A stretch of DNA of 64,000 nucleotides from Anaeromyxobacter sp. (GTDB taxonomy: Bacteria > Myxococcota > Myxococcia > Myxococcales > Anaeromyxobacteraceae): assembly GCA_049840735.1 (NCBI GenBank), contig JASGJN010000022.1, positions 576,001-640,000 of the forward strand. Direction: 5' to 3'. The translations under genes were made by a program, and so were the position numbers. Position 1 is the stretch's first letter. Every line of letters starts with the position of its first letter. A model generated the notes under the pieces. It worked only from the letters and a program-made list of their open reading frames with translations. It made no database searches and was not told the origin of the DNA. Positions 37,740 to 62,435 of this stretch are shown one piece after another.

Positions 37740-37761
37740 TGTCCGAGCCTGGCGGTAGGCT
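37740..37761 (+). promoter_or_regulatory. TGTCCG-N10-TAGGCT promoter upstream of rmuC (PafBC-type)
   Basis: Read directly from sequence; 20 nt to the ATG with a GGAGG RBS. Confidence 0.6.
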
Positions 37762-37781
37762 CTCCAGGCACGGAGGGCGTC

Positions 37782-39110
37782 ATGGACCTGGGGCTGGTGG
37801 TGGGGGTGCTGGCCGCGCTGGCGGCCGGGGTGGGCGCGGGGCTCTTCGCGGCGCGGCAGGGGGCGCGGGCGCGCGAGGCGCACGCGGCGGACCTGTCGGC
37901 GCGGCTCTCCGCGGCCGAGGCGCGCGGGGCGGAGGCGCAGGGGCAGGTGGTGGCGCTGACCGGCGAGCTGGCCGCCGCGAAGGCGGCGCTCGGCGCCGAG
38001 CGGCAGGGGGCGCAGGCGCGGGCCGCCGAGGCCGAGCGCGCGCGGGAGCAGGTGCGCGCGGAGATCCAGCTGCTGGCGGCGCGGCTGCTGGATGAGAAGG
38101 GGCGGGCGCTGCTCGACCGGAACCACGAGGCCCTGCAGCAGCTCCTGGCGCCGGTGGCCGAGAAGCTGCGCGCCTTCGAGGCCAAGGTGGAGAAGGCCTA
38201 CGACCAGGAGAACCGCGACCGGGCCAGCCTGCTGCAGTCGCTGGCGCAGCTGCGCGAGACGCAGGGCAAGCTCCACGCCGACGCCGAGGGGCTGGCGCGC
38301 GCGCTCACCGGGGACTCCAAGGCCCAGGGCGACTGGGGCGAGCTGGTGCTGGAGCGGGTGCTGGAGATCGCCGGCCTGACCGAGGGGCGCGAGTTCGACC
38401 TCCAGGTCAGCCACGACGACGAGGCCGGCGGGCGCAAGCGGCCGGACGCGCTGGTCTACCTCCCCGGGAGACCGCGCCGTGGTGGTGGACGCCAAGTGCT
38501 CGCTCACCGCCTTCGTGGAGAGCGTGCGCGCCGCCGACGCCGAGGCGCGTGAGGCCGCGCTGGACCGGCACGTCGCCTCGCTGCGCGCCCACGTGAAGGG
38601 GCTGGCGGGCAAGCGGTACCCGGAGGTGCTCCGCCACCGCACGCTGGACGTGGTGATGCTGTTCGTGCCCAGCGAGCCGGCCTTCCAGGCTGCGCTGGCG
38701 CGCGACGCCGCGCTCTACGAGGACGCCATCGGGCTCGGCGTGGTGATGGTGAGCCCCACCACGCTGCTGGCCGCGCTGCAGGTGGTCCGCCACGTCTGGC
38801 GGACCGAGCAGCAGGGCCAGAACGCGCGGCGCATCGCCGAGGAGGCCGGCAAGCTGCTGGAGAAGCTGGGCGCCTTCCTGGCCGACCTGGACGGCGTGGG
38901 CACGCGGCTCTCGCAGGCGCAGGAGAGCTTCGCCGCCGCGCGCAGCAAGCTCGTCACCGGCCGCGGCAACGTGCTCAAGAAGGCCGCCGACCTGGCGCGG
39001 CTGGGGGCGCCGGTGAAAGGGGAGAAGGCGCTGGCGCTGGTGCAGGAGGCGGGGGAGGGCGAGGACGGGCTGGCGGGGCTGCCGGGCAGCGGAGGTGGGC
39101 CGCAGGCGTG
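37782..39110 (+). CDS. rmuC: DNA recombination protein RmuC, frameshift near 38468
   Basis: N-terminal TM segment and coiled coil; KAQGDWGELVLERVLE and RPDALVYLP, then VVDAKCSL...VMLFVPSE...VSPTTLLAAL in a shifted frame. Confidence 0.92.
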
Positions 39111-39132
39111 ACAGCGGCGCTCATCGGCTGGG

Positions 39133-39237
39133 CTTCGACTCCGCGAGCCCTGCGGGCTCGCTACGCTCAGCCCGAACGGTGCCGGATGGACCGTTCGCCC
39201 TGAGCGTAGCCGCGGCACGGCCGCGGCGGAGTCGAAG
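39133..39237. repeat. REP-like composite palindrome (two inverted units, each with an internal hairpin)
   Basis: CTTCGACTCCGC[hairpin]GCTACGCTCAG..CGAACGGT and its inverse ACCGTTCG..CTGAGCGTAGC[hairpin]GCGGAGTCGAAG. Confidence 0.8.
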
Positions 39238-39309
39238 GGCGCCGCCGGACCGCCTTGGGCGCTTGCGGCTCATGAGCCCTGACCAGGCGAGCTCGGCTAC
39301 ACTCACGTC

Positions 39310-39948
39310 ATGGAGCAGCTCCTCTCCGCGCTGCAGGCGCCCGTCCTCGGCCCCATCTCCTGGGCCGAGCTCATCGGCGACGCGACCGGCCTGGCCTGCG
39401 TCTGGCTGGTGCTGCGCCAGCACGTCTGGAACTGGCCGGTGGGGCTGGCCAACAACGCCTTCTTCTTCCTGATCTTCTGGTGGTCGCGGCTCTACGCCGA
39501 CGCCGTGCTGCAGCTCGTCTTCGCGGTCATCGCCGTCTACGGCTGGTGGAGCTGGGTGCGCGGAAGCGGGCCCGGGCAGGCGGCGCTCCCGGTGCGGCGC
39601 ACGCGGCCGGTGGAGTGGGCCTGGCTGGGGACGGGCGTGGTGGTCTCCACCGCCGCCGTGGCGGCCTGGCTGGCGCACCGGACCACCTCCCCGGTCCCGC
39701 TGGCGGACGCCAGCATCCTCACGCTCAGCCTGGCCGCCACCTACGGCCAGGCGCGCAAGCTGCTGGAGTCCTGGTGGCTGTGGATCGCGGTGGACGTGAT
39801 CAGCGTCCCGCTCTACGTGCAGCGCGGGCTCTACCCCACCTCCGCGGTCTACTTCGTGTTCCTCCTGCTCTGCGTGGGCGGGCTGCGCGCCTGGCTGCGC
39901 GACCTCCCGCCGTCGGCGCCGTCCGCGCCCGAGGGAGCGCCCGCGTGA
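39310..39948 (+). CDS. pnuC: Nicotinamide riboside transporter PnuC
   Basis: Multi-TM; VWNWPVG, LYADAVLQ, YGWWSW and ARKLLESWWLWIAVDVISVPLY. Confidence 0.93.
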   Translation: MEQLLSALQAPVLGPISWAELIGDATGLACVWLVLRQHVWNWPVGLANNAFFFLIFWWSRLYADAVLQLVFAVIAVYGWWSWVRGSGPGQAALPVRRTRPVEWAWLGTGVVVSTAAVAAWLAHRTTSPVPLADASILTLSLAATYGQARKLLESWWLWIAVDVISVPLYVQRGLYPTSAVYFVFLLLCVGGLRAWLRDLPPSAPSAPEGAPA

Positions 39949-41042
39949 CGCCGCGCCACGGCCTGGTGATCGGCAAGTTCTACCCGCCGCACGCCGGCCA
40001 CCACCTGCTGGTCCGCACCGCCGCCGCCTGCTGCGAGCGGGTGACGGTGGTGGTGATGGCCGCCACGGCGGAGTCCATCCCGCTGGCGCTGCGGGTGGAG
40101 TGGCTCCGCGAGGTGCACCGCGACGCGCCGCACGTCGCGGTGGTGGGGACGATGGACGACCACCCCGTCGATCTGGAGAGCGACGCCGTCTGGCGGGCCC
40201 ACGTCGGCCTGATGCAGGCGGCCGCGGCCCAGGTCACGCCGGCCCCGGTGGACGCGGTCTTCACGTCGGAGGGGTACGGGGACGAGCTGGCGCGCCGGCT
40301 CGGGGCGAGGCACGTGCAGGTGGACGCCGACCGCCGGCTGGCGCCGATCTCCGCCACCCGCGTGCGCGCCGACCCGGTCTCGGCCTGGCCCTTCCTGGCC
40401 GAGCCGGTGCGCGGCTGGTTCGCGCGCCGGCTGGTGGTGGTGGGCGCCGAGTCCACCGGCAAGACCACCTTCGCCGAGGCGCTCTGCGAGGCGCTGCGGG
40501 CGCGCGGCGGGCCGCACGGGCTGACGCGCTGGGTGCCGGAGTACGGGCGGGAGCTGACCGTGGAGCTGCTGGCGCGGGAGCGGGCCCGGGCCCAGCTGGC
40601 CGGACGTCCGCGGCCGCGGCTGGAGGACCTGCCCTGGGCCACGCCGGACTTCCTGCGGGTGGCGGAGGAGCAGAGCCGGCGCGAGGCGCGCGAGGCCTGC
40701 CGCGGCGGGCCGGTGCTGGTCTGCGACACCGACGCCTTCGCCACCGGCCTCTGGCACGAGCGCTACGTGGGCGCGCGCTCGCCGGAGGTGGACGGGCTGG
40801 CGCGCCGGGGGGACCTCTACCTGCTCACCGACCCCGCCGACGTGCCCTTCGAGGACGACGGGCTGCGCGACGGGCAGCACCTGCGCGACTGGATGACCGC
40901 CGCCTTCGTCGAGCGGCTCGAGGCCACCGGCCGGCGCTGGCGCTGGCTGCGCGGCGGGCGGGCGGAGCGCGTCGCGGCCGGGCTCGCGGCGGTGGACGGG
41001 CTGCTGGCGGCAGGGTGGGCGCTGGCGAAGCCGCTGGGGTGA
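39945..41042 (+). CDS. nadR: NadR-type NMN adenylyltransferase / ribosylnicotinamide kinase (no HTH)
   Basis: GKFYPPHAGH (HxGH), ISATRVR, GAESTGKTT, VPEYGRE, VCDTD and VPFEDDGLRDG; GTGA coupled to pnuC. Confidence 0.9.
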   Translation: MTPRHGLVIGKFYPPHAGHHLLVRTAAACCERVTVVVMAATAESIPLALRVEWLREVHRDAPHVAVVGTMDDHPVDLESDAVWRAHVGLMQAAAAQVTPAPVDAVFTSEGYGDELARRLGARHVQVDADRRLAPISATRVRADPVSAWPFLAEPVRGWFARRLVVVGAESTGKTTFAEALCEALRARGGPHGLTRWVPEYGRELTVELLARERARAQLAGRPRPRLEDLPWATPDFLRVAEEQSRREAREACRGGPVLVCDTDAFATGLWHERYVGARSPEVDGLARRGDLYLLTDPADVPFEDDGLRDGQHLRDWMTAAFVERLEATGRRWRWLRGGRAERVAAGLAAVDGLLAAGWALAKPLG

Positions 41043-41142
41043 GGCGGTCGAAGGACTCCCGCGGTCCTCCCGAGAGCCGCGCAGTCCGCCTCGCCAATCT
41101 GCTCGAGCTCCGCCGTCGACCTGCGCCAGACCGTGGCCGGCC

Positions 41143-41592
41143 TCAGGAGTCCAGCTGCTCCGGCGGGCGGCAGGCGGCGAAGAAGTCGTCGGCGGCCGAG
41201 CGCAGCGCCGAGAGCGACCGCTCCAGGAGCGCGCCGCTGACCGGCTGGCCGCAGAGGAAGGTCTCCACCAGGAAGCGGACGCTGGCGGACTCGAGGTCGA
41301 GGACCGTCTTCACCCCTTTCATGCGGTCGTTGAGGTCGTTCACCAGCCGGTGCAGCGCCTCGGCGTCGTACCGCCCCTGCTCGAGGTCGAAGGCGGCCGC
41401 CAGGCGGAAGTACTCCGGGTCATCCTCGTGGGCGAAGAGGATGAGCTGGACGCCTTCGAGCTTGAAGGTGATGGGCGTGAGGTCGCCCTCGCTCGGCCCG
41501 GAGTGGGGCCGGAAGCCCTCCTCGGAGAGGAAGTCGACCAACGCGTCACGGACCGTACGGGGCACCGCGGTGTCGGAGGGCGCGTCGTCCAT
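41143..41592 (-). CDS. YbjN/type III chaperone-like protein
   Basis: DFLSEEGFRP...ITFKLEG...FRL...VNDLNDRMKGVK pattern. Start placed at 41592 because the ATG at 41604 lies inside the -10 box. Confidence 0.65.
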   Translation of the reverse strand: MDDAPSDTAVPRTVRDALVDFLSEEGFRPHSGPSEGDLTPITFKLEGVQLILFAHEDDPEYFRLAAAFDLEQGRYDAEALHRLVNDLNDRMKGVKTVLDLESASVRFLVETFLCGQPVSGALLERSLSALRSAADDFFAACRPPEQLDS

Positions 41593-41599
41593 GGGGAGG

Positions 41600-41620: not shown

Positions 41621-41641
41621 TGCCGCCCGCGACCTGCCGTC

Positions 41642-44600
41642 TCACGTTCCCAGGACGACCTCCGCCACCTCGCCCCGGACCGGCAGGTGGATGAAGGTGC
41701 CGCGCAGCGGCTTGCCCAGCGCCTGGGCCAGCACCCGCGCGTACCAGGCCAGCTGCGGCGCGTACTCCTCCACCAGCCGCCGGTCGCGCTCCTCCGGCCC
41801 CCCCGGGAAGGACTTGTGGTCCACCAGCACGAAGCCGTCGGTCAGCTCCAGCACCAGGTCGGCCTCGCCCACCAGCAGCCGCGGCGGCTCGCCGACGAGC
41901 CGGGCCCGCAGCGGCCACTCGCGGTGCCAGGTAGCCCCCGGGAAGCGCGCCTCGGCCCAGCGCCGCAGCGCGTCGGCCGCGCCCAGCAGCGCCTCCGGCG
42001 GGAGCGCCCCGGTCACGTCGAAGCCAGCCAGCAGCCGCTCCGCCATGGCGCGGCGCTGCGCCGGCGGGCCGCCGTCGTCGGCCGCCAGGAAGGCGTGGAG
42101 GGCGTCGCCCACCGCGCGCATGTCCGAGGCGGCCGCCAGCGGAGCCCGTCCGGCCAGCGGCGTCACCGAGGCCACGCGGGCCGAGACCGGCAACGGCTCG
42201 GCGGACGGGTTCACGATCTCCCGCGGGCGGGGCGCGGCTGGCGAGGCGGCATACCAGGGCGCCGCCGCTTCCGGCGCCCCCGGTCCCTCCGGCGCGATGG
42301 CCTCGAGCGTGCCCACGGTGCAGCCCCAGCGCCGCTCGCCCAGCCGCACCTCGTCCAGCCCGGCCCTGGCATCGAACGGGAAGCGCGGCTTCAGCGCCGC
42401 GAGCTCCAGGAGCGGCGCCAGCGCGGCCACCCGGGGCCCTTCCTTCTTCCGCTCCACCACCATCCCGAGCAGGTCGCGGGCGCGGGTGAAGATGACGTAG
42501 AGGAGTCGCAGCCGCTCGCGGGCGTCGCGGGCGGTCGCGTCGAGCCCCTCCGGCGACTGGGCCGCCAGGTCGGCCAGCGCCGCGTCCTTGGAGACCTTGC
42601 CGTAGGGCCAGGGCCAGTAGCGGACCCAGCGGCCGGCCAGTGGCGCCTCGAAGCGGAAGCCCGCGGCCGGCACGGTGGTGACCTGGAACGCCGACTGGTC
42701 GCGCTCGTGGTCGAGCTCGGCCAGGATCACCACCGGCCACTCGAGCCCCTTGGAGCGGTGCCAGGTGCTGACCGTCACCGCGTCGTCGGCGCTGGGCATG
42801 GCCTGGCGGTCGGCCTCCGGGTCCTCGCCCAGCACACCCAGGTGCGCCACCAGCCCGAGCACGGTGGAGGCCACCCGGCGGGACCGGCACTGGTCCTCGT
42901 AGGCCCGCGCCACGGCGCGGAGCGCCTCGAGGTTGGCCAGCGCCTGGCCCGGATCCGGCCAGCCGCGCACCACCTCGCCCAGCCGCCCGGCCCGCAGCGC
43001 CAGGTCGAAGGCCTCCGACGGCGAGAGCGCGCCGGCCTGCCCCGCCGCCTCGCGCAGCGCGTTCACCCGCGGCTCTTCGGCGAACGGGAGCGGCCGCTCC
43101 GGCGCGACCTCGCCCCGGGCCTCGGCCTCGCCGCGCGCGGTCTTCCAGGCCCGGGTGGTCTCGAGCAGCCCGGAGAGCCAGCCGTCGGGGTCGGCCGCGG
43201 CCGGGCCGGAGAGCCAGCTCACCTCCAGCGCCGCCACCCCGTCGCGCGGGTCGGCCATGAGCGCCACCGCCGCGCGGGCCAGCCGCCCCTCCGGCGTGGT
43301 GGAGAGCCCGCTGGCCGCCACCCGCGCGGCGATGCCGCGGGCGCGCAGCGCGGTGGCGATGGCGGAGCAGCGGTCGTTCCGGTAGGCGAGCACCGCCACG
43401 TCGCGCCGGGTGACCGGCCGGAGCCGCTCGCCGCCGTCCGCCAGCCGCTCCCTCACCCGTAGCTCCGGCCGGCGGGCCAGCAGCGCCTCCACCGCCTCCG
43501 CCATCGCCTGCGCCTCGGAGCGAGGCGGCTCGCCCTCCTTGGCCCGTCCGCCGGTCCAGCTCCAGAGCGCGAAGGGTGGCTGCGCGGCCAGCGCCGCCGG
43601 CTCCTCCGGCCGCTCCGGCTGGAGCACCACCTGGTCGCGCGGGATGGCCTGCCCCGCGAAGGCGCCGGCGAACAGCTCGGAGGTGAACTCGACCAGCTGG
43701 GCCCGGGACCGGTAGGAGGTGGCCAGGATCTCCGGCGAGCCGCCGCCCAGCACCGTATCGAGGGCGGCCGTCATCAGCTCCGGGTCGGAGCCCTGGAAGC
43801 CGAAGATGGCCTGCTTGCGGTCCCCCACCCAGATGCTGCGCCGGGCCAGCCCGCCCAGCGCGGTGACCACCGCCAGCTGCAGCGGGAGGTGTCCTGCACC
43901 TCGTCCACCAGCACCAGGTCGAGCCGGTCGCGCAGCACCGCCTGCACGGCCGGGAGGCCCAGCACGCGGTGCCCGTGGGCCAGCATGTCGGCGAAGTCGA
44001 CCACGCGCGCCAGCGCCTTCTCGCGCACGAACGCGTCCAGCGCCTCCGCCGCCAGCTCGAACAGCTCGGCCTGGAAGCCCAGCAGGTCCTCCTGGAAGCC
44101 GCGGCAGGCGAGGTGGCGCGCCACCCACTCGCGGAAGGGCCCTGCCCCGGCCGCCAGCTTCTTCGCGCCCACCTCGCTGGCCAGCTTGAGCTGGGCCCGC
44201 CAGACCGGGAACCTGCCCGCCTCGAGCGCCGCCTTCATGCGCTGCGCGGTGCCGAGCCGATCGCGGGCGGCGCCGCCGGACGGTGCGTCCTCCTCCAGCC
44301 TGGGGATCATCCCGGCCAGCGTCTCCCGCAGGCCGGCCAGGTAGGCGGCGCGGTCCAGCGTGGGCGGGCCCAGCAGGCGCGCCAGCCCCTCGCGGCTCCG
44401 CTCCGCCGAGGCGCGCAGATCCTCCGCGCCCAGGCCGTTGGAGCGTGCGGCGTCGATGACCTGTCCCAGCGGCTCGCCCCAGTCCTCGATGTCCAGCCGC
44501 TCCGAGAGCGCGTTGAGCTTCCCCTCGCGCCCGCGCAGCACCTCCGCCCGGGCCCGCGCCAGGATCACCCGGCGCTCGGTCTCCGGCACCGGCTCCAGCC

Positions 44601-44889
44601 AGGGCGAGAGCCCTGACTCGAGCGCGAACTCGCGCAGCAGCCGCTGGCAGACCGCGTGGATGGTCCCGATGTAGCCGTCGCGCACGCGCGCGGCCAGGTC
44701 GGCCTTTCCGGCCTCCAGGAGCCGCCGCCGGATCCGGCTCTCCAGCTCGCGCGCCGCCTTGACCGTGTAGGTGATGGCGACCACGCCCTCCGGCCGCGCG
44801 CGCCCGGCCTCCAGCTCCTCGAAGAGCCGCTTCGCGAGCGTGAAGGTCTTGCCGGTGCCGGCCGAGGCGCTGATGATCTCGAGGTTCAC
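41642..44889 (-). CDS. addA: AddA/RecB-like UvrD helicase with C-terminal PD-(D/E)xK nuclease, frameshift near 43885
   Basis: ASAGTGKT, VAITYTVKAAREL, GTIHAVC, VLVDEVQDTS, WVGDRKQAIFGFQG, STWHRSKGLEW, LLYVIFTRARD and ADLVL...LVDHKS. Confidence 0.88.
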
Positions 44890-47607
44890 GGCTCCACCTC
44901 CGACTGGCCCACGGACACCTCGCACAGGACGCTGAACTGGCAGAAGTCGCACCTGGGCGGGTAGCGCCCCGGGTCCTTCCTGCCGGGCACCTCGCCCACC
45001 ACCTCGGCGATCCGCTCGGCCCAGTCGCTCTTCTCGATGGCCACCGGCACGTGGCCCCCGCCCAGCGCCCGCTCCCACAGCGCCAGCGTGCGGCCCGCGA
45101 TCTGCAGCGTCTCCTCCAGCGACGGCCCCTGCGCCTCGACGGCGGTGGGGAAGGCGTGGAGCGAGTGGGCCAGGAGCTCACCATCCTGCAGCACCAGATA
45201 GCCCGCCGGAGGCAGCTTGCCGCCCTGGGGGCCCAGCATCCGCGCGTAGAGCGCCAGCTGCAGCCCCTGCCCCTGCTCCAGCTCCTTGCGACGGTAGGTG
45301 AAGCGGCCCAGCTTGAGGTCCAGCACGGCGCGCGCGCCGTCCTTGCGCCGGCGCAGCACCAGGTCGGCGTAGCCCTCCACCGGGTGGCCGGCGAACTCGC
45401 CCGCGAGCGGCGTCTCGACGCCCACCACCTCCCAGTCGCCGGCGTGCAGGTGGCGGACCAGCGCCGCCGCCGCGCCCCCGGCCAGCCGGCGCGCCCGGTC
45501 CAGCGCCAGCTCCTGTCCGCGCTGCACCAGCGGCGCCGCCTCGCCCGCCACCCGCGCGTCGAAGGCGCGCTCCACGTGCGCCTGCGCGTCCGCCTCGGAG
45601 AGCCCGGCCAGCGGCAGCGCCCGCGGCCCGTGCACCAGATCCTGCAGCAGCGCGTGGACGAACGTGCCCAGCAGCTGCGAGCCCTCCGGCAGCTGCAGGG
45701 CCCGCCCTGGCCGCAGGCCGGCGCCGTACTGGAGCAGCCACTGCAGCGGGCAGCCCAGCAAGGACATGAGCTGCGTGGCGGACTGCGTGCCGGTGACCTC
45801 CACCGGAGCGACGCGCCAGAGCGTGCGCGGCGCGATGGGCGCCGCGGGCGGGATGGCGGTCAGCCGTGGCGCCCAGCCCGGCGCCCGCCCGGCCAGGACC
45901 TGCTCGGACGAGAACCGTGCACGCCGCCAGCCCACCCGCCGCTGCTCGCGTCTCCAGCTCGTCCAGGAACGGGTGCGGCTGCAGCACCTCGATGCCGGAG
46001 AGCCGCCAGCGCACCAGGGTCACGCCCTCGCTGGCGGCCAGCACCGTCCGGCGCCAGCTCCAGGCCTCCAGCGCGCGCCGCGCACCCGGCGCAGGCAGCT
46101 CCACCCCCGCGGCCGCCAGCGCGTCCGCCTCCGCGCTGGACCAGCCGTCCGGCGCGCCGCCCACCTCCACGTCCTGCACGAACCCCCACCAGATGACCTG
46201 CTCCGCTCCCGGCAGCACCGCGCCCGCCCGCGGCGCCAGCGCCGGCCGCCCCGCCTCCGGCGCGCAGGCCGCGCGGTCGGCCCCGCTCCCCACCGCCAGC
46301 GCGTGCAGCTGCAGGAGGGCTACCGGGGTGAGCCGCTGGTCCGCGGGGCGCGCCAGGAGCACCCGCTCCAGCGCCCGCGCCACCGCCGCAGCCTGCGCCC
46401 AGAGCGGCGCAGCCTCGTCGTCGGAGCCGGCCCGTCCACCGAGCCAGGTGGCCACCTGCCGCGTGTGCTCGAGCGCGTGGGCCACCGCCAGCCCCTCGTG
46501 CGGATCGGCCAGCGGGGGACCGAACCAGGCGCTGATGCGCTGCTCCAGCGTCGGCCCGTGCGCCTCGTCCCGCGCGGCCGCCTCCGCCGCGAGCTCCTGC
46601 ACCGCCTCCTGCCAGGCCGGGCTCCAGACGGCGGGCATGTGCGTGAGCGCCTCGAGCAGGCGGCGCTTCGTGACGCCCGGGAGCGGCCCGCCCGGCAGGA
46701 GCAGCAGCTCCGCCGCGCGGAACGGGTCCTGCGGCCCGTAGGCCAGCAGGAGCCGCAGCGGCAAGACTTGAAGCTGCGGGCGCAGCGCCGAGGTGACCCC
46801 CAGCCCCAGCGTGGGCAGCCCCTGCCGCAGCAGCGCCGCGTCGAGCGCGTCCGGCTCGGCGGCGGCCAGCAGCGTGGTGGCCGCCGGGGGCTGCTGCCGG
46901 AGCAGGTCTGCGGTCAGCTCCGCCGCCTCCAGCGCCGTGTCGGCCTCCAGCAGCCGGAACGACCCGTCGCCGCGGAGGCCGGCGCGCGGGGCGTCGGGAT
47001 CGAGCAGCGCCGACTGCAGCGCCGCCAGGTCGGTGCCGGCCGCGGCGCGGACCCCGCATCCGCTGAAGGACCGGTCATGGTCGCGCCCGCCGCGGCCAGC
47101 GCGTCCAGCAGCCGGCGCACCAGCGGCTCGAAGGCGATGGGCGGCGCGCACAGCTCCAGCGTGAGCGGCTCGGCGAGGTGGCCGGCCTGCGCCAGCAGCG
47201 TCGCCAGCTGCGCCAGCGCGTCGGGCAGGCCCGGCGGCAGCCGCTCCGGCCGTGCCTCCAGCCGCGCCAGGTCGGCGAGCCGCTCGCTGCCGGCCAGCGC
47301 CTGGCCGGTCCAGGCCCATCATCTTCAGGCGATCGCGCAGGGCGAGCAGGAACGCGGCCACGCCGAAGGTGTCGCTGGCGCGGGAGGCCGAGTAGGCGCG
47401 CGCGCCGTCGTCGTCCGCGTCGAGCCGGGTCGCGAACGCGGCCAGCCGGTCGGGGGCGCTGGCCAGGTCCGGCGCGGCGCCCACCAGGCGGGCCACGCGG
47501 CGGGCCAGCCCCAGCGGACCGACGCACTCCCAGCCCGCGCGCGCCGTCGCGAGCGCGTGGCGCCAGGCCGTGCCGCCGTCGTGAGGTGTGAGGAGCAGCT
47601 GGAGCAT
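44886..47607 (-). CDS. addB: AddB-like partner with Fe-S-stapled PD-(D/E)xK nuclease, frameshifts near 47310, 47070 and 45920
   Basis: Inactive-helicase-like N-terminal part; C-terminal SATQL..LLGCP...GTFVH...GYADLV...VLDLK...LQLALY...CDFCQFSVLC; GTGA coupled to addA. Confidence 0.78.
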
Positions 47608-47628
47608 GGGTCCCCCGGAGCTTCTGCA

Positions 47629-52066: not shown

Positions 52067-52069
52067 GGG

Positions 52070-53905
52070 ATGGCCACCTATCGCCCCGAGGCCGCGCTCA
52101 TCGTCCAGTCGGACGGGACCATCCTGGCCGAGGTGGGCGCGCCGGACTACCCGGTGGCGCGCGCGAAGCTGGCCCGCTTCGCCGAGCTGGCGAAGTCGCC
52201 CGAGCACGTCCACACCTACCGCATCACCCCGCTGTCGCTCTGGAACGCGGCGGCCTCGGGCATGGGCGAGGCCGAGGTGGTGGCGGCGCTGCTGGAGCAC
52301 TCGAAGTACGACGTGCCGCAGAACATCCTGGCCGAGGTGAGGGAGCAGCTGGGGCGCTACGGCCGGCTCTGGCTGGAGCAAGGCGACCGCCCCGGGGTGC
52401 TGCTGCTCCGGGCCTCGGATCCGTACCTGGCCCGGGTGCTCGAGCTGTCCAGGGCCGGGGCGCTGCTGGGCCGGCAGCTCGAGCCTGGCGTGTTCGAGCT
52501 GCCGGTGGAGCGCCGGGGCGACGTGAAGCAGGCGCTCATCGCCGTGGGCTGGCCGGTGGACGACCGGGCCGGCGTCGTGCCTGGCGAGGGCATGCCGTGC
52601 CAGCTGCGGTCCGTCACGGTGGGCGGCGCGCCGTTCGCGCTGCGGCCCTACCAGTCCGACGCGGTGGAGCTGTTCGCGGCCGGCGGGGCGCACGGCGTGA
52701 TCTGCCTACCGTGCGGCGCGGGGAAGACGCTGGTCGGCCTGGGGGCGATGGCCCGCTTCCAGGAGAGCACGCTGGTGCTCTGCGCCAGCACCACCGCCGC
52801 GCGGCAGTGGCTGGCCGAGGCGCTCGACCGGACCACGCTGCAGGCCGGCGACGCGGGCGAGTACACCGGGGCGGGCAAGTCGGTCCGGCCCTTCACGGTG
52901 GCCACCTACCAGATCCTCACCCACCGCCCCGGCGGCCGGAAGCCAACCCCCGAGGCGCCGCTGCGGGCAGAGGACTTTCCGCACTTCGAACTCTTCAACG
53001 CGCGGCGGTGGGGCCTCATCATCTACGACGAGGTGCACCTGCTGCCCGCGCCGGTCTTCCGCATGACCGCCGCCATCCAGTCGCGCCGCCGCCTGGGCCT
53101 CACCGCCACGCTGGTCCGCGAGGACGGGCACGAGGGGGACGTGTTCTGCCTGGTGGGGCCCAAGCGCCACGACGTGCCGTGGAAGGACCTCGAGGAGAGC
53201 GGGTTCATCGCCAGCGCGGTCTGCTGCGAGATCCGGGTCGGCCAGAGCCCCGCCATGCGCATGACCTACCTGGCGCTGGAGCGGCGGGACCAGCACCGCT
53301 TCGCGGCCGCCAACCCGCGCAAGCTGGACGTGGTCAAGGCGCTGGTGGCGCGGCACCCGGGCGAGCCGGTGCTGGTGATCGGCACCTACCTCGGCATGCT
53401 CCGCCGGCTGGCGCAGCAGCTGGGCGCCCCCATCGTGGACGGGGGCACGCCGCAGCCGGTGCGCGAGGGGGTGTTCGCCGCCTTCAGGCAGGGCAAGCAC
53501 CCGGTGCTGGTCCTGTCCAAGGTCGGCAACTTCTCCATCGACCTGCCCGACGCCTCGGTCTGCATCCAGGTGTCGGGCAACTTCGGTTCGCGCCAGGAGG
53601 AGGCCCAGCGGCTGGGGCGCATCCTGCGCCCCAAGGCCCGGCAGGCCTGGTTCTACACCGTCATCACGCGCGACACGGAGGAGAGCCGCTTCGCCTTCAA
53701 GCGGCAGCTCTTCCTGGGCGAGCAGGGCTACGCCTACCTGATCGAGGACTGGGAGCAGGAGGTGCCCGAGGGGTCTGCCGATTCCGCCGAGGCGCCGCCC
53801 CTCCCGCCGCCGGCGCTGCCCGGCGAGGCCCCTGCCGGCCCGCCAGACGCCACCGTCATCTCGCTCTCCGACGAGAGGGATCGCCGCCGTGCCACACTTC
53901 ACTGA
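52070..53905 (+). CDS. xpb: XPB/Ssl2/Rad25-family SF2 DNA helicase
   Basis: N-terminal domain AELAKSPEHVHTYRITPLSLWNA; LRPYQ, LPCGAGKT, IYDEVHLLPA, LGLTATLVREDG and GSRQEEAQRLGRILRPK. Confidence 0.95.
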   Translation: MATYRPEAALIVQSDGTILAEVGAPDYPVARAKLARFAELAKSPEHVHTYRITPLSLWNAAASGMGEAEVVAALLEHSKYDVPQNILAEVREQLGRYGRLWLEQGDRPGVLLLRASDPYLARVLELSRAGALLGRQLEPGVFELPVERRGDVKQALIAVGWPVDDRAGVVPGEGMPCQLRSVTVGGAPFALRPYQSDAVELFAAGGAHGVICLPCGAGKTLVGLGAMARFQESTLVLCASTTAARQWLAEALDRTTLQAGDAGEYTGAGKSVRPFTVATYQILTHRPGGRKPTPEAPLRAEDFPHFELFNARRWGLIIYDEVHLLPAPVFRMTAAIQSRRRLGLTATLVREDGHEGDVFCLVGPKRHDVPWKDLEESGFIASAVCCEIRVGQSPAMRMTYLALERRDQHRFAAANPRKLDVVKALVARHPGEPVLVIGTYLGMLRRLAQQLGAPIVDGGTPQPVREGVFAAFRQGKHPVLVLSKVGNFSIDLPDASVCIQVSGNFGSRQEEAQRLGRILRPKARQAWFYTVITRDTEESRFAFKRQLFLGEQGYAYLIEDWEQEVPEGSADSAEAPPLPPPALPGEAPAGPPDATVISLSDERDRRRATLH

Positions 53906-55988
53906 GTCCCACGCCCGCTACTTCCGCGAGGAGACCCCGGTCCGCGAGCTGGCGCGCGAGCTGCTCGGCGAGTGGGTGCCAAGCCCGATCCTGGCGGCCC
54001 GCGCGCTGGCCGAGCTGGTCGCGGACCTGCCCCGCCTGCAGGCGCTGGTGACCACCTTCCCCGGCGCCGGCGTGGTGGCGCTGGAGGTGCTCTCCGGGGA
54101 GGAGGAGCTCGACCGGCGTGACCTGGTGGTCCGGCTGGAGGCGCGGCTCGGCCCGGGGCGCGCCGAGGCGGCCCTCCACGCGGTGGGGCGGCGCGGGCTG
54201 CTGGCGCAGCAGCGCGGGTGGCACGGCCACCTGGTCTGCAAGCTGTGGGAGCCGTTCCGCGAGGCGCTGCGGAGCGTCTTCGCCGCCGGGGCGCTCGCCG
54301 GAGCGCCGGAGGAGGGCGCCGCCTGGCCGGACCAGGGCGGCCTCGCGCTGGCGGTCCTGCTCGCCCAGCTCGAGAAGGCCCCGCTCCGCATCTCGCGCAA
54401 CGACTCGCCCAACCGGCGCGACCTGGAGGTGCTGGAGCGCCGCTTCGAGCGGGCGCTCGGGGACGGCGTGACCACCCACGTCGTGCGGGCCTTCCGGCGC
54501 ATCGGGCTGCTCGCCCACGAGGTGCGCGACGCCCAGCCGCGCGCCAGCCTCTTCGCCGTGGTCGATCAGGGCGCTGCGCTCGGCTTCCTCGAGGGCACGC
54601 GCGCGCAGCGGCTGCGGGCGCTGTGCGCAGCCTGGCCGCCGCCCCGGGCGCTGCGCCCGCTCTTCCAGGCGGGGGCGCGGGTCCTCCCGCTCGAGCACTG
54701 CCGGCGCCTGGGCGGGCCGTGCGGCGTCGAGGAGCAGACGGCCTGGCTCGAGTTCGGCCTGGCAACCGGCCTGCTGGAGGAGGTGGGCGGCGGGGTGCGC
54801 GTCGCCGGCGAGCTGCGCGGCCAGCGCCCGCAGCGCCCGGCCGCCGGCCGCTGGCTGGTCCAGCCCACGCTGGAGATCGTGGTGCCGCCCGACGTCCCCC
54901 CCGGCGACGTCTTCCGGCTGGCGCGCCTGGCCGAGGTCGAGTCGCTCGACCGCGCCGCCGTGCTGCGGCTCACGCCGCGCAGCCTGGACGCGGCCTGCGG
55001 CGCCGGGTTCGACGAGCACGACGCCATCCAGCTGCTCACGGCGCGCGCCGGCGCGCCGCTGCCCGAGACCGTGCTGCGGGTGCTGGCGGACGGCCTGCGC
55101 TCGCCGCGGATGGCCCGGCTCCACCACGGGCTGGTGGCCGTGGTGCCGGGTGGGCCCGCCGCCACGCTGCGGGCCCACCCCGAGCTGCCCAGGCTGGCCC
55201 CGCGCGAGCCGGCGCCCGGCGTGTTCCTGGTCGAGCCAGGCCAGGAGGAGGCGTTCAAGAAGGTCCTCGCCGCGACCGGGGCGGAGGCGCGCTGCGAGGG
55301 GCGCCGCACGCCGACGTTCTGGCCACAGCAGCTGGACGCCTGCGACACGGCCGAGCTGGAGATCCTGCTCGCGCTCCCCGCCCTGCCCGACCCGGATCCG
55401 CGCATCGCCCAGGCCCGGCAGCGCGCCCTGGACGGCCACGCCGGCGAGTTCCCCGAGGTGCCGCCTGCCGCGCCTGCAGCGAAGGTCGATGCAGGGGCGG
55501 AGGTGGATGGGGAGGAGCTCGGCTTCGAGGACCCGGAGGAAGACGCCGCGGAGCGCGAGCTGGACGAGGAGGAGGTGGAGGCCGTCCTCGACGTCGAGCA
55601 GGGCCAGGAGGCGCCGCCCGCGCTCCGGGACATGTTCGCCCAGTGGGCGCCCGTCGCCCGCAGAGCCATCGCCCGCCGGCACGACCTGTGGCTCCTGCTC
55701 GACGGCGCTCCGCCGCGCCGGGTGACCCCGCACCGCTTCGGCCTCTCCGGCGGGCGGCTGCAGCTGGAGGCGCTGGCGCAGGACACGCTCGAGCTGCGGG
55801 CGTTCCCCGCCGACCTGATCCGCGCCGCCGCGCTGTCCGGGCCGAGCCGGCCCAGGTTCCTCACCGCCCTGACCGAGGCCCGCGGCGTACTGCGCGCCTC
55901 GCGCAACGACCCCTGCCCCTGCGGCAGCCAGCGCAAGTACAAGGCCTGCTGCCTGACCAGGGACGTGGCCGACGAGCTGGGGACGTGA
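53889..55988 (+). CDS. XPB-associated protein: Helicase_C_3 (XPB-NTD/Tfb2-like) domain + WYL-like domain + SEC-C motif
   Basis: WLVQPTLEIVV...LARLAEVESLDRAAVLRLTPRSL...LPETV; acidic linker; RRAIARR...RRVTP...LEA...RAFPADLI; RNDPCPCGSQRKYKACC. Confidence 0.8.
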   Translation: MPHFTESHARYFREETPVRELARELLGEWVPSPILAARALAELVADLPRLQALVTTFPGAGVVALEVLSGEEELDRRDLVVRLEARLGPGRAEAALHAVGRRGLLAQQRGWHGHLVCKLWEPFREALRSVFAAGALAGAPEEGAAWPDQGGLALAVLLAQLEKAPLRISRNDSPNRRDLEVLERRFERALGDGVTTHVVRAFRRIGLLAHEVRDAQPRASLFAVVDQGAALGFLEGTRAQRLRALCAAWPPPRALRPLFQAGARVLPLEHCRRLGGPCGVEEQTAWLEFGLATGLLEEVGGGVRVAGELRGQRPQRPAAGRWLVQPTLEIVVPPDVPPGDVFRLARLAEVESLDRAAVLRLTPRSLDAACGAGFDEHDAIQLLTARAGAPLPETVLRVLADGLRSPRMARLHHGLVAVVPGGPAATLRAHPELPRLAPREPAPGVFLVEPGQEEAFKKVLAATGAEARCEGRRTPTFWPQQLDACDTAELEILLALPALPDPDPRIAQARQRALDGHAGEFPEVPPAAPAAKVDAGAEVDGEELGFEDPEEDAAERELDEEEVEAVLDVEQGQEAPPALRDMFAQWAPVARRAIARRHDLWLLLDGAPPRRVTPHRFGLSGGRLQLEALAQDTLELRAFPADLIRAAALSGPSRPRFLTALTEARGVLRASRNDPCPCGSQRKYKACCLTRDVADELGT

Positions 55989-55990
55989 CC

Positions 55991-56539
55991 ATGAGCGCCG
56001 CCCGCTACCTCGGCCCTGAGCCGCCCATCCGCGACCTCTCGGTGGAGTGGCCCATCTTCCTGTGGCGCCCCGACGGCACCGGCCGCCGCGAGGGGCTCCT
56101 CCTCCGCACGCCGCTCTGCCCCGACCCCAGCTGCAGCGAGCGGCACCTCCTCATCGACGCACACGTCGTCTCGGACGACCTCCTCGGCACCGAGAGCTTC
56201 GACGTCCAGTATCCGCCCGGTGTCCCGGAGGTGCTCGACCACGCCTTCACCCTGCGCGTCGCGCTCGACGACGGAGAGGTGGAGCCCACCCGCCGCGTCG
56301 ACCTCCCCGACGCGCTCGCCTGGTTCCTGCAGGAGCTCGACCCCGAGCTGCTCTCCACGCTGCGCCGGCGGTTCGTGTTCCAGCGGCGGGAGCGGGGAGT
56401 GGCGGAGGGGATCCCGGTCCGACGAATCCCGCAGCCCGGGCGGAACGAGCCGTGCCCGTGCGGTTCCAGGAGAGAGTTCAAGTTCTGCTGCGTGGCCGAG
56501 ATCTCAGCTGATTCGCCGCCTAGGTCCACGCCGTCGTAG
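55991..56539 (+). CDS. SEC-C motif protein
   Basis: ATG 2 nt after the previous stop; CPDPSCSERH and GRNEPCPCGSRREFKFCC. Confidence 0.75.
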   Translation: MSAARYLGPEPPIRDLSVEWPIFLWRPDGTGRREGLLLRTPLCPDPSCSERHLLIDAHVVSDDLLGTESFDVQYPPGVPEVLDHAFTLRVALDDGEVEPTRRVDLPDALAWFLQELDPELLSTLRRRFVFQRRERGVAEGIPVRRIPQPGRNEPCPCGSRREFKFCCVAEISADSPPRSTPS

Positions 56540-56665
56540 CGCCGCTGGGGGGTGAGCCGGGTTGGCGCTGCGGGATGCGGTCGTTGTTCGCCCTGCACGG
56601 ATGAATCTCGGCTTCCCCGAGCACCTCGGGAGGCGGGGCGCCTTCGGTTCGGATACGATGGCCCG

Positions 56666-57637
56666 GTGAGGTACTGGTGGGTCAACCAGAAGCAGACCTA
56701 CCGCCACGAAATCGGCGGTGGATACCTCTGGTCGCCCAAGCGGAAGGCAGACCAAAGCCGAAACCGCTTCTACGACAACATGAAGGCGGTGGCGCCGGGT
56801 GACGTGGTCTTCTCGTACTGGGAGGCCGCCATCCGGGCGTACGGCTTCATTCGATCGTTCGGATACGACGCGCCTAAGCCGGAGGCGTTCGGGAACGCGG
56901 GCCGAAACTGGAGCCAGATCGGCTACCGCGTCGACGTGGAGTATGTGAAGCTCGAACGCCCGATCGAACCACGACAGGCGTGGAACCGCATCCAACCGCT
57001 CTTGCCGGACAGGTACTCGCCTCTCAACCCGGCAAACGGCAAGGGGCTTCAGTCCGTCTACCTGGCTGAGCTGCCCCTCGATCTCGGTGCGCTCATCTGG
57101 TCGCTGAGCGCCGACGCCGGGAACGCGCTGGTGGTCCGCGATGCGCGCGCAGCGCTCATTGCCTCGGCCGAGGAGCCAGAGCGCGAGACCTGGGAGCGTC
57201 ATGAGCTCGAGCAGCTCGGCGAAGCGAGGCTCGACAGGACGGAGCGGGAGGCGATCGTCAAGGCCAGGGTAGGGCAGGGCCTGTTCAGGCAGAACATCGC
57301 CACGCTGGAAAGGCAGTGCCGGATAACCGGCGTATCGAACCCCGCGTATCTCATCGCAAGCCACATCAAGCCCTGGCGGCACGCGAGCAATGAGGAGCGG
57401 CTCAGCAAGCACAACGGGCTCATGCTGGCGCCACAGGCAGACTTCCTGTTCGACCGCGGGTTCATCTCGTTCGGAGATGGACGACTCCTCGTATCGCCAG
57501 TGGCGGACGAGCGGAGCCTCGTGAAGCTCGGGGTAGACCCCGACCGCCCCCCGGTGGTGGGGGCCTTCACGAACGAGCAGGAACAGTATCTCGAGTTTCA
57601 CCGAGCGGAGATCTTCAGGGCGGTGGACGTTTGCTAG
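56666..57637 (+). CDS. EVE/PUA-like reader + HNH endonuclease (putative modification-dependent restriction enzyme)
   Basis: YWWVNQKQTY..EIGGGYLWSPK...GDVVFSY; RVGQGLFR..CRITG...ASHIKPW...NGLML...LFDRGFISF; visibly lower GC than its neighbours. Confidence 0.85.
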   Translation: MRYWWVNQKQTYRHEIGGGYLWSPKRKADQSRNRFYDNMKAVAPGDVVFSYWEAAIRAYGFIRSFGYDAPKPEAFGNAGRNWSQIGYRVDVEYVKLERPIEPRQAWNRIQPLLPDRYSPLNPANGKGLQSVYLAELPLDLGALIWSLSADAGNALVVRDARAALIASAEEPERETWERHELEQLGEARLDRTEREAIVKARVGQGLFRQNIATLERQCRITGVSNPAYLIASHIKPWRHASNEERLSKHNGLMLAPQADFLFDRGFISFGDGRLLVSPVADERSLVKLGVDPDRPPVVGAFTNEQEQYLEFHRAEIFRAVDVC

Positions 57638-58509: not shown

Positions 58510-58591
58510 GCCGACGAGCGCTCGGCCCTTTGGCCTATTGCCGGCCCCCGGGCTCCGCGGCGAGTCTGCAGGGTCACCCCGGGAGGCCCGA

Positions 58592-59669: not shown

Positions 59670-59699
59670 CGTCGCAGGGCGGTGCCCGGCGCCGCCCGC

Positions 59700-61008
59700 T
59701 CAGAACGCCTCGCCGGCCCCGAAGTACACGCCCACCGAGTCCTGCCCGGCCGCCAGGTCGAGCGTGACGTTGTTGCGCGCCTCGCGGTTCATCATGAAGC
59801 GCAGCCCCACGCCGGCGGCGGGGCGGAGCCGCTCGAAGAGGTGCTCGCGCCCCTGCTCGTGGCCGGCCACCGACACCGGCGGGCTCGAGAACGTCGCGGC
59901 GTTCGCGAACACCACACCGCCCAGCAGGCCGTCGTCGGTGAGCCGGAAGCGCCACTCGGCCTCGCCGTAGACCTCGGCGTCGCCGCGGAAGCGGCCCTGG
60001 ATGTAGCCGCGGCCGCTGCGGATGGCGAAGTCCCAGCCGATGGACGGCAGCGCCAGGTAGGGCAGCCGCCCCGAGGTCACGCCCTGTCCCAGCACCCAGA
60101 ACGCCAGCACGTTGCGCGGCGTCTCGTCCGACAGGCTCACGTAGGTGCGCGCCTCGCCGAAGACCATGGTCGCGTCCTGGGTGCTGCCGAGCCACTCCGG
60201 GTAGGCGCGCAGCGAGCCGTTGAGGTACCAGCCGCGGTAGGCGTTGATGGTGGAGTCGCGGCTGTCGAGCACCAGCTCCAGCCCCACGCCGGAGGTGTTG
60301 TAGGCCTTGCCGGGGAAGCCGAACTGCTCGCTGTAGGCGGCGTGGCTGGTCACCACCGGCGGCGCGGCCCCCAGGTCCAGCCGCTGGTCGTCGATGCCGT
60401 AGTAGCGGTCGAAGCGGTAGCTCAGCCCGGCGTAGAAGCTCCCCTTCACCCGCCGCAGCACCGACTGGTGGATGCGGAACAGGTTGAAGTCCATGGGCCG
60501 CTCGCCCGCCAGCGTGGCGGTGGGGCCGATGCCACCGAGGGTGAAGGCGGTGTCGTCGGTGCCGGCGCTGGAGCCGAGGCCGTAGGTGGACTGGTTGGTG
60601 AGGAGCAGCCGGTAGTCGCCCTGCAGCTGCCAGGCGTTCCCCTCCAGCACGGCCACGTTGCGCGACTGCACGATGAGCTGCTGCTTGGTGGTGACGAAGG
60701 CCACCAGCCCGAGGCTGGAGATGGTGGTGGTCTCCGGATCGCCCATGTAGATGCCGGCCAGCGTGGTGATCCCGAGCACGAAGCCGTTCTGCGGCGTGTA
60801 GCCGACGGCGGGGATGATGGAGGGGTAGAGCTTCCAGGGCTCGAGCACGCCGCGGCTCTTCTTGAGGCCGATCCACTCCAGCAGGTCGCGCTGGTCCATG
60901 TAGCGGGCCCCCGCCGGCCGGGGCCGGCGGCGGGGCGTCCTCGGCCAGGGCCGGGGCGGAGGCCGCGAGCAGCGCGCAGGAGAGCAGGGTGGTGCGCAGG
61001 GCCGTCAC
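59700..61008 (-). CDS. Omp85/BamA-TamA-like barrel-only outer-membrane protein, frameshift near 60905
   Basis: PAVGYTPQNG, LDSRD, GRGYIQGRFRG, GVGLRF and terminal FGAGEAF; signal peptide in the upstream frame. Confidence 0.82.
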
Positions 61009-61128
61009 GAGGGGCTCCGGGTGGAGTAGCGACCCCGAGTCTAGGCGCCCTGCGCCGCCGCCGACAAGGCGGCGCCCACTGGACCTTCGGTGCATTCCCG
61101 GGCGGCCCGCTTCGTGCCTTGATGCGGC

Positions 61129-62251
61129 ATGTCCCGTCCCCGGCACCGCCCGCACCTCGCGCGCTCCCTGGCCCTGGCCGCGGCGCTGCTCGGCCCCTGG
61201 GCCGCGCCGGCGCGCGCCGACCTCCAGGAGCTCTTCACCGACCCCGCCGACGGCGCCTTCGACGCGTCCGCATGGCTCGCCACCCGCCGCGGCTTCGTGC
61301 CGCTGGTCATCCCCATCACCGAGCCCGCGCTGGGCTACGGCGCGGCGGGCGGGCTGGTCTTCTTCCACGCCCAGCCGGCGGAGCCGGGCGAGCGCGTCGA
61401 GTTCTCCCCGCCCAGCCTCTCCGCGGCCATGGGGTTCGCCACCAGCAACGGCACCTGGGGCGCGGGCGGTGGGCACATGGGCATCTGGAGGCACGACACC
61501 ATCCGCTACCTGGGCGGCGGCGCGTACACCTCCCTCAACCTCGACTTCTACGGCGCCAGCGAGCAGGCGCGCCGCTTCAACCTGGAGGCGGTCCCGGTCA
61601 TGCAGGAGCTGGTGCTGCGCGTGGCCGGCAGCCGGCTCTACGCCGGCGGCCGCTGGATGTTCGCCCACTCCAAGGTCACCTGGAAGGACGCGCCACCGGA
61701 CGGCCTGCTGGGCGCGACGGTGGGACTCGACCATCAGCGGCGCCGGCCCGGTGGTCACCTGGGATGCCCGCGACACCATCTTCACGCCCTCCAGCGGCAC
61801 GCGCGCGGAGGCTTCGTTCCTCTGGTTCGAGCCGTGGATGGGGAGCGACTACACCTACTGGAAGCTGTCCGCCTACCAGCTCGGCTACTTCCCGGTGACA
61901 CCCTCCGTGACCACCGCGCTCCGCGTGGACGCGCAGCTGACCGGCGGGGAGGTTCCCTTCTACGCGCTGCCCTACGTGCGCCTGCGCGGCGTGCCGGCGC
62001 TGCGCTATCAAGGCAACTCGGTGGTGGTGGCGGAGACCGAGGTGCGCTGGGACATCGTCCGCCGCTGGAGCGCGGTCGGCTTCGCCGGCGTGGGCGCGGT
62101 GGACGCGCTGCGGGACGAGGTGCCCTGGAGCGCCGGCGGCGGCTTCCGCTACCTGCTGGCCAGCGCCTTCGGCCTGCGCATGGGCCTCGACGTGGCCCGC
62201 GGCCCGGAGGACTGGGCCTGGTACGTGGTGTTCGGGAATCCGTGGCGGTGA
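61129..62251 (+). CDS. Omp85/BamA-TamA-like barrel-only outer-membrane protein, frameshift near 61730
   Basis: Signal peptide; PITEPALGYG; then WDARDTIFTP, LRGVPALRYQG, GGGFRYLLA..FGLRMGLDVA and VFGNPW. Confidence 0.82.
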
Positions 62252-62414
62252 GGGCCCGGCGAACGCCGCCAATGCCCTCGGACGTCACGAACCTACGCTT
62301 GGCGAGTAACGGTCACCCCAGGGCCATCCCGCGTTGCGTGATGCACAACGATGGTTTGCGCCTCGTCAACGGACCGGCCCCGGCAGGTCGCGTAGACTGG
62401 CGCCCACGAAGGCG

Positions 62415-62435
62415 TGTCCGTCCGGTCGGGAGGAT
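62415..62435 (+). promoter_or_regulatory. TGTCCG-N9-GAGGAT variant promoter upstream of the DUF6361 gene
   Basis: Same upstream hexamer and spacing as 41600 and 47629; the -10 box differs at the first base. Confidence 0.4.

Follow-up and report, generated by a model that had tools for sequence, protein, structure and literature searches.

A second, accessory PafBC-type gene pair in Anaeromyxobacteraceae, candidate activator of nuclease and defence genes at TGTCCG-N9 promoters

Introduction

In Mycobacterium smegmatis, single-stranded DNA (ssDNA) binds the WYL domains of the PafBC activator, PafB recognizes the GTC element of the promoter with its residues R46 and R50, and PafC stands in for the -35 contacts that sigma region 4 would make (PMC8635444, PMC11804915). 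Such sigma adaptation is an established mechanism in actinobacterial PafBC alone, where the spacer is fixed at 10 nt. PafBC is not new to myxobacteria: in Myxococcus xanthus the genes are named (MXAN_1359/1360) and are LexA-repressed, and a 2021 paper asserts a regulon in passing, with a PafBC-binding sequence in 24 of 51 genes and a motif that is not in its text (PMC9705874). A 2025 study noted MXAN_1359/1360 and did not study them further, reported sbcC1/sbcD1 to be LexA-independent and described the regulators of the LexA-independent damage response as still sought (PMC12288472). In Moraxellaceae, the WYL activator DdaA ties DNA damage to CRISPR-Cas and restriction systems (PMC12392091). 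Here we analyzed a stretch of 64,000 nucleotides from Anaeromyxobacter sp. (GCA_049840735.1), hereafter the window (G000:C22:576001-640000, in a genome G000 of 6.67 Mb, 26 contigs and ~74% GC). It carries a PafBC-like gene pair and four sites resembling PafBC promoters.

An earlier note on the window had attributed all four sites to a single variant damage regulon of this pair, covering recombination repair and possibly a defence system. We consider it fairly probable, from comparison of sequences, that two PafBC-type activators, both sensing ssDNA, share out the work in Anaeromyxobacteraceae: a core pair A acting on repair genes at promoters with a 10-nt spacer (N10), and the window pair, hereafter pair B, leaning to defence at promoters with a 9-nt spacer (N9). 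Pair B would then be an accessory paralog beside the canonical pair, PafBC-like but different in its spacer and in lacking the recA regulon. A literature search, with subscription papers mostly outside it, found no report of a second PafBC pair, of the N9 motif or of an Anaeromyxobacter regulon, and the accessible parts of PMC6789036 and PMC11237760 do not treat pair B.

Results

The genome contains five WYL genes: pair A on contig C4, pair B in the window and a single YafY-type gene (C26:250947). Pair B consists of adjacent PafB-like and PafC-like genes, each encoding the winged helix-turn-helix (wHTH), WYL and WCX domains of PafBC. The gene pafB2 (31411..32435, minus strand) has Pfam WYL and WCX matches and a frameshift near its 5' end; pafC2 (30449..31414, minus strand), which overlaps the pafB2 stop, has Pfam WYL and WCX matches and a weak HTH_PafC match. 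PafB2 is 39% identical to the core PafB of the same genome. A PafB2 profile built from 11 intact relatives matched M. smegmatis PafB (E 4e-26, positions 13-333), and PafC2 matched M. smegmatis PafC (E 4.7e-9, residues 8-317). The core pafB and pafC lie in one open frame of 701 aa (G000:C4:44680-46752, L169), and frames of ~680-720 aa occur in many relatives, which makes a natural fusion likely.

Pair A is near-universal. Pair B was detected in 19 of the 36 relatives within the genus; of the family's 39 other genomes, 28 have it, with one further partial match. Named relatives of the window WYL pair belong to Anaeromyxobacter and Anaeromyxobacteraceae, and named records with pair B include A. 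dehalogenans 2CP-1 (P0051) and A. oryzae Red232 (L242); among 151 genomes of the phylum pair B was found in no other family, and elsewhere the genes were single-copy among the matches listed. A plasmid search for pair B gave no copy and three weak matches. A tree of 44 rows placed pair B (13 rows) and the family pair A (9 rows) in a clade each, both with support 100. Support for the sister group of pair B was only 82, so that no donor or order of duplication is claimed.

Three exact matches to TGTCCG-N9/10-TAnnnT were found in the window, at the places given by the earlier note: TGTCCG-N10-TAGGCT before rmuC (37740-37761, plus strand), TGTCCG-N9-TATGAT before a ybjN-like gene (41620-41600, minus strand) and TGTCCG-N9-TAGAAT before an addB-addA-like operon (47649-47629, minus strand). 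The mean over 100 shuffles was 0.08, with a maximum of 1 and none reaching 3, which agrees with the chance expectation of well under one that had been put forward. A fourth site (62415-62435, plus strand) reads TGTCCG-N9-GAGGAT, as had been stated, its -10 element departing from the exact TAnnnT; a looser pattern that catches it gave 9 matches against 5.64 by chance in the window, no excess on its own. All four are intergenic and gene-facing, with start codons 20, 7, 21 and 33 nt away, within the 7-33 nt proposed. The gene names in the note were likewise borne out, since Pfam identified RmuC, YbjN, DUF6361 and two WYL and WCX proteins, and AddB/AddA-like domains are present. An additional exact N9 site precedes sbcD at G000:C22:574256, 1.7 kb left of the window.

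Over the whole genome, eight exact TGTCCG-N9-TAnnnT sites and two exact N10 sites were counted. When spacers of 5-15 nt were scanned, TGTCCG peaked at N9 (8 sites vs 0-4) and TGTCAG at N10 (5 vs 0-1). Intergenic gene-facing counts, which rest on a rough self-made coding mask, were 7 for TGTCCG-N9 vs 0-2 and 5 for TGTC[AG]G-N10 vs at most 1-2. The mycobacterial form, tGTCgg(N10)tA(N3)T, differs in its 10-nt spacer from the class that we assign to pair B. Two looser patterns were abandoned. Relaxing the element to nGTCnn yielded mostly noise (49 at N9 and 43 at N10, vs 21-42 at other spacers), and 38 genes chosen from 92 such sites included about six repair or replication genes. As a second pair-B class, TGTCRG-N9 was rejected because it stood at control level in 76 genomes.

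The eight N9 sites of the genome head cas3, a DruE-like helicase gene, a DUF6884/PDC-M57 pair, sbcD, the addB-like gene, ybjN, a LuxR regulator gene and a gene for a 94-aa protein whose ortholog in G012 has an N9 site too; five of the eight precede nuclease, helicase or defence genes. The cas3 site lies 6 nt above the start of a type I-E cas operon (G000:C13:463157-471352, L312) with an array of ~38 repeats nearby, while the DruE-like helicase match is partial and does not establish a wider system. These sites are non-palindromic and spread over three contigs besides the pair B region. Among 58 N9 sites, the first ATG stands 6-8 nt past the -10 element in 17 and a -35-like hexamer occurs in one; the combination of a GTC element with a -10 element is that of the bipartite PafBC-type promoter, as the note had recognized. 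The genes behind N9 sites in relatives further include a vWA gene (5 genomes), genes for a type IV restriction-like PLD-helicase and for an HmaA/DrmD-like helicase, PARG, ARPP-1 and others without a family match. A related sequence, TGTCCG-N9-TACGAC, stands before a VIT-vWA gene of the study genome (C22:39948, L310); in relatives, N9 sites beside pair B often face vWA genes.

The N10 class has another gene content. Its two exact TGTCCG sites head rmuC and an S1/P1 nuclease gene. With one -10 mismatch allowed, 32 TGTC[AG]G-N10 sites face a gene, whereas spacers of 7, 8, 12 and 13 gave 6-11. Eleven of these 32 head repair, replication or nucleotide genes (a grouping of our own), vs 0 of 29 scanned controls, namely recA, ssb, an imuA-like gene, uvrD, radC, addB1, an SNF2 helicase gene, a 3'-5' exonuclease gene, nrdJ, dNK and a NUDIX gene. 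First-base variants at N10 precede ruvB, dnaB and a second uvrD, and dinB has TGTCCG-N10-TAGGCG. No exact TGTCCG-N9 was found ahead of recA, ssb, ruvB or uvrD in this genome, which have N10 sites instead. Within the genus, TGTCVG-N10 exceeded the control in 20 of 20 genomes with pair B and in 14 of 17 without it. The genome also has lexA, with SOS-like boxes near recA and imuA. Four copies of an element resembling an insertion sequence, one of them in a region with a TnpB-type TNB domain, have TGTCAG-N10-CACGAT near their start (C16:38350, C20:847621, C22:684861, C26:348613), possibly reflecting damage-linked mobility or merely terminal sequence.

The presence of N9 sites followed that of pair B, in agreement with the co-occurrence expected by the earlier note. 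In the genus, TGTCCG-N9 averaged 5.1 per genome in 20 genomes with pair B (reversed control 1.15) and 1.12 in 17 genomes without it (control 0.94); at least five sites were present in 13 of the 20 and in 0 of the 17. The idea of two pairs was formed on this set and then tested on 38 held-out genomes of other genera, where the means were 5.5 with and 1.9 without pair B and at least five sites occurred in 15 of 28 vs 0 of 10. G085 was excluded from this count as a partial match; it was later found to hold pafC2, with 4 sites. Means with and without pair B within a genus were 5.1 vs 1.1, 4.0 vs 1.4, 2 vs 0 and 5.6 vs 3.5, the same direction in all four genera that contain both kinds of genome. 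Of the 32 N9 sites in five closed genomes, 18 lay at most 100 kb from pair B, against an expectation of 1.2; none lay near pair A.

The spacing at orthologous sbcD promoters switches along with pair B. Before sbcD, TGTCCG-N9-TATCCT was found in 6 of 6 relatives with pair B, and the study genome has N9 too; the spacing was N10 in 6 of 6 genomes in which pair B was not found, comprising G025 and 5 of 5 genomes of the single-pair family f6 (TGTCRG-N10). The sites are thus kept at orthologous promoters, as the note had anticipated. In G006 and G014, sbcD lies ~1 Mb from pair B and still has N9. A second sbcD-like family has TGTC[ACG]G-N9 in 8 of 8 cases. For addB-like orthologs, the spacing was N9 in five of nine, N10 in three and no site in one. 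Orthologs of rmuC had N10 in 14 of 19 (among them those of 3 of the 6 genomes in which pair B was not found), N9 in three and no site in two; the gene was matched in one of five f6 genomes, weakly. Because of this 14 of 19 majority we place the window rmuC site in the N10 class, and it is probably read by the core pair A. The ybjN-like and addB sites of the window fall into the pair-B class. At the ybjN-like gene of two relatives (L227, L228) the promoter is TGTCCG-N9-GATGAT, and GAnnAT variants also precede the extra WYL module described below. This use of GAnnAT at an orthologous promoter supports the fourth window site, which is probably a weaker pair-B promoter; the GAnnAT variant alone was not enriched genome-wide in G000. 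The gene uvrB was dropped as a marker: an N10 site lay close to the start in 6 of its 30 orthologs.

Residues of both pairs were compared with PafBC structures of M. smegmatis and Arthrobacter aurescens (PDB 7P5X, 9FND, 6SJ9). The recognition helix of the window PafB2 reads EARERMFTRDK and retains both GTC-reading arginines of helix 3, R46 and R50. The canonical pattern is R-x-F-E-R-D-K (RKFERDK in pair A, RMFERDK in M. smegmatis), and that of pair B is R/K-x-F-S/T-R-D-K: at position 49, all 120 pair-B homologs have S or T and all 9 pair-A rows have E; position 46 is occupied by R in 82 of the 120 and by K in 38, and R50 is kept in all 120 matched. Six of eight ssDNA-binding WYL residues (PafB R181, Y196, R204, R208, R211, R214; PafC R201, R204) are kept in pair B, as is K52. 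The core pair A also lacks R211, having H there. PafC D62 is G in the window PafC2, within a remodelled loop, and the core PafC keeps both D and the loop. The sigma70 of this genome keeps the equivalents of R416 and R442. A predicted complex of PafC2 residues 1-105 with sigma70 region 4 scored 0.01, with an uncertain partner fold, and is not used as evidence.

Several observations weigh against a division of labour between the two pairs. In PafB2, Y replaces R211 and I replaces Y196, two residues required for ssDNA binding in M. smegmatis; PafC2 lacks D62, sigma has A at S446, and pafB2 itself is frameshifted in the assembly. Promoters do not sort cleanly either: addB-like promoters are N10 in two pair-B genomes, uvrB and recN in G000 have GTCAG-N9, and G093 and G098, in which pair B was not found, have TGTCCG-N9 before rmuC. 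Five genus genomes with pair B have 0-1 N9 sites, and G019 (79% complete, pair B not found) has four, and N9 before an sbcD-like gene. Some genomes scored as lacking pair B are incomplete, and p-values near 2e-4 overstate the association because kin are not independent. In G098, a PafC2-like remnant of 55 aa with 45-48% identity to PafC2 lies behind an unrelated open reading frame (L414, G098:C3:812636-812800), which suggests a recent loss of pair B.

Some of these observations could be accommodated if the core pair A read both spacings, pair B being a passenger on islands of N9 genes or a degenerate modulator. The clustering of N9 sites beside pair B would fit, since linkage could produce part of the correlation, as would the N9 sites of G093, G098 and G019 and the loss in pair B of the R211, Y196 and D62 equivalents. 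We nevertheless regard this explanation as unlikely: the distant sbcD of G006 and G014 is N9 and becomes N10 where pair B is missing, TGTCCG-N9 falls to control level in genomes without pair B, and pair B keeps R50, K52, R181, R204, R208, R214 and PafC R201/R204.

The two pairs might also overlap or mix their subunits, for example PafB2 with PafC1, so that the spacer would be only a preference within one graded regulon. Alternation between N9 and N10 at addB-like and rmuC promoters among pair-B genomes speaks for this, as does the second sbcD-like family. In G084 and G085, moreover, the core pafB of pair A has TGTCCG-N9-TAnnnT 9 nt before its ATG (L405, G084:C480; L406, G085:C30), which might mean that pair B is cross-wired onto pair A. 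Against mixing stand the control-level count of TGTCRG-N9 over 76 genomes and the apparent fusion of pair A, which would hinder an exchange of subunits. We give it slightly less credit than the preceding explanation and see it as improbable.

The regulon of the earlier note, in which the window pair alone would drive damage-induced genes including recombination repair and all four sites, appears very improbable, even though the N9 class, which makes up three of the four window sites, follows this pair. A second, near-universal pair exists; N10 sites exceed the control in 14 of 17 genomes without the window pair; rmuC has N10 in three genomes without pair B. As for the expected enrichment of the window-pair motif before repair genes, recA, ssb, ruvB and uvrD carry N10, mostly TGTC[AG]G, regardless of pair B, and recA, ssb, imuA and ruvB have no TGTCCG-N9. 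What stands of this single regulon are the N9 sites and the defence system, whereas the rmuC site and the core repair genes probably fall outside it. That another factor reads the site, such as the YafY-type WYL protein at C26:250947 (the fifth WYL gene), a repressor or an alternative sigma, is hardly credible, as the site is not a palindrome, is spaced from a sigma70-type -10 as in PafBC promoters and tracks pair B in the held-out genomes.

In the window, pafB2 is preceded, 8 nt before its ATG, by the -10-like hexamer TACACT (32444..32449, minus strand), with no TGTCCG element upstream; similar hexamers (TAGACT/TACACT/GATACT) precede it in relatives. In relatives a WYL-WCX module of ~165 aa, devoid of a helix-turn-helix and homologous to the C-terminal half of PafB2, precedes pafB2 (L227:9893-11437, L228:9893-11446, L231:9440-11026, L232:9851-10570, L242:9465-10181). 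It is fused in frame in some of them (34 of the 120 top homologs have at least 460 aa) and is a separate open reading frame in others. The module has a TGTCCG-N9 promoter, and the -10 element of pafB2 lies inside its end; it was not found in G000. It is possibly a feedback subunit.

The genes behind the four sites are as follows. The N10 site faces rmuC (37782..39111, plus strand), which lies in two frames, each with a Pfam RmuC match. The YbjN-family gene (41143..41592, minus strand) has its ATG 7 nt past the -10 element, a leaderless geometry. The accessory AddB-like gene (44886..47607, minus strand; C-terminal PD-(D/E)XK nuclease) is split over several frames, with an intact 932-aa relative (L228:238-3033), and is followed by an AddA-like gene (41642..44889, minus strand) in two frames, with domain matches to a UvrD helicase and PD-(D/E)XK. 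The fourth site faces a zacA-like gene (62469..63640, plus strand), split over frames, with Pfam DUF6361 and a PADLOC match to ZacA (E 6e-39). The start of a zacB-like PLD nuclease gene follows (63696..64000, plus strand) and continues past the window, before a zacC-like helicase gene; on L014, PADLOC matched ZacB (E 2e-167) and ZacC (1092 bits). This order of DUF6361 ZacA, PLD nuclease ZacB and SF2 helicase ZacC, judged by gene matches, is that of Azaca (ZacABC), an anti-phage system (10.1101/2025.07.10.664194), and bears out the suspicion that the regulon includes a defence system. Since DUF6361 occurs in just 3 of 92 genomes, its orthologs are too few to test; several near-sites were seen in G023 and none in G076.

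Reading frames are split in pafB2, rmuC, addB, addA and the DUF6361 gene. Since 10 of 47 genes of G000 tested against relatives were split, rpoD among them, assembly indels are indicated and these splits are probably artefacts; true decay may be an alternative, given the several splits in addB. Elsewhere in the window, a transposase-like gene (36269-37540; weak DDE_Tnp_1_assoc) lies directly upstream of the rmuC promoter. Genes for a PnuC-type nicotinamide mononucleotide transporter and a NadR-like nucleotidyltransferase/kinase (39310-41042) follow directly 3' of rmuC and are possibly cotranscribed with it. Positions 52070-57637 hold genes for an XPB/RAD25-type helicase, a Helicase_C_3 and SEC-C protein, a SEC-C protein and an HNH endonuclease, the last of lower GC; none of them has a TGTCCG site ahead.

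Discussion

The sites, their spacing, their co-occurrence and clustering with pair B, the switch at orthologous promoters and the residue changes are direct observations. By analogy with M. smegmatis PafBC, from which we derive ssDNA sensing, activation, sigma adaptation and the assignment of pairs to sites, they can be joined into the following model. The core pair A would read nGTCRG-N10-TAnnnT at recA, ssb, imuA, uvrD, ruvB, addAB1 and rmuC, and the accessory pair B would read TGTCCG-N9-TAnnnT. ssDNA from damage or from an invading replicon would fill the WYL-WCX tunnel of pair B, which would then probably wedge between DNA and sigma70 region 4 and fire promoters that have no -35 element and are often leaderless. 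In such sigma adaptation the element would lie one base closer, the changed helix and PafC loop setting the geometry. Its targets would be DNA-end nucleases (SbcCD and the second AddAB) and defence genes (type I-E CRISPR-Cas, Azaca, the DruE-like helicase, PDC-M57), to which type IV restriction-like and HmaA-like helicases may be added in relatives. Pair B would thus probably switch on defence when ssDNA appears.

More tentatively, and with a probability that we put below even, a duplicated PafBC could have been retuned by a single base pair of spacing into a dedicated ssDNA-triggered immunity switch. Unrelated defence systems (CRISPR I-E, Azaca, DruE-like, type IV restriction) would have been wired in by gaining TGTCCG-N9, the canonical pair keeping repair. 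The WYL-WCX module without a helix-turn-helix, which in many relatives is fused to PafB2 or lies before it under the same promoter, would serve as a feedback part.

If the two-pair model is true, coexisting 9- and 10-nt paralogs would show how sigma adaptation gains specificity, as a natural swap experiment, and ssDNA sensing would be linked to genome-wide anti-phage defence in myxobacteria. In family f6, the single pafB is preceded by a published M. xanthus SOS box, which was matched exactly at 1 of 373 loci and approximately at 18 of 20 f6 loci. As 5 of 5 f6 genomes have TGTCRG-N10 upstream of sbcD (L374-L378), MXAN_1359/1360 become a concrete candidate for the regulator sought in M. xanthus. 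The 24 promoters and the motif of PMC9705874 may overlap with our N10 result.

Among known systems, M. xanthus pafBC belongs to the same family and has the same gene order as the Anaeromyxobacter pairs, but is single-copy and LexA-repressed, with a canonical helix. CapW, BrxR and DriD are WYL ssDNA sensors like pair B, and CapW and BrxR are linked to defence operons; each of the three is encoded by one gene, DriD activating as a homodimer and CapW acting as a repressor, whereas pair B is of the heterodimer type. CapW and BrxR act at local palindromic operators. Pair B differs from this layout in being a tandem pair with dispersed, non-palindromic sites. DdaA is a single regulator of both repair and defence that binds ~50 bp upstream of the start site and is reported as probably not working by sigma adaptation, whereas pair B is a dedicated paralogous pair whose -26-type element ends 9 nt above the -10 element. 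The PafBC of M. smegmatis and A. aurescens share with pair B the tandem wHTH-WYL-WCX genes, align with it over the full length and use a GTC element with a -10 element and no -35. Pair B has in common with actinobacterial PafBC R46 (in the window protein), R50, K52, most WYL arginines and a sigma with R416/R442 equivalents. It is set apart by a spacer of 9 instead of 10, the hexamer TGTCCG, the changes of E49 to S/T, R211 to Y and Y196 to I, and the loss of D62. It further differs in having accessory nuclease and defence targets rather than recA, a coexisting canonical pair and no adjoining pafA.

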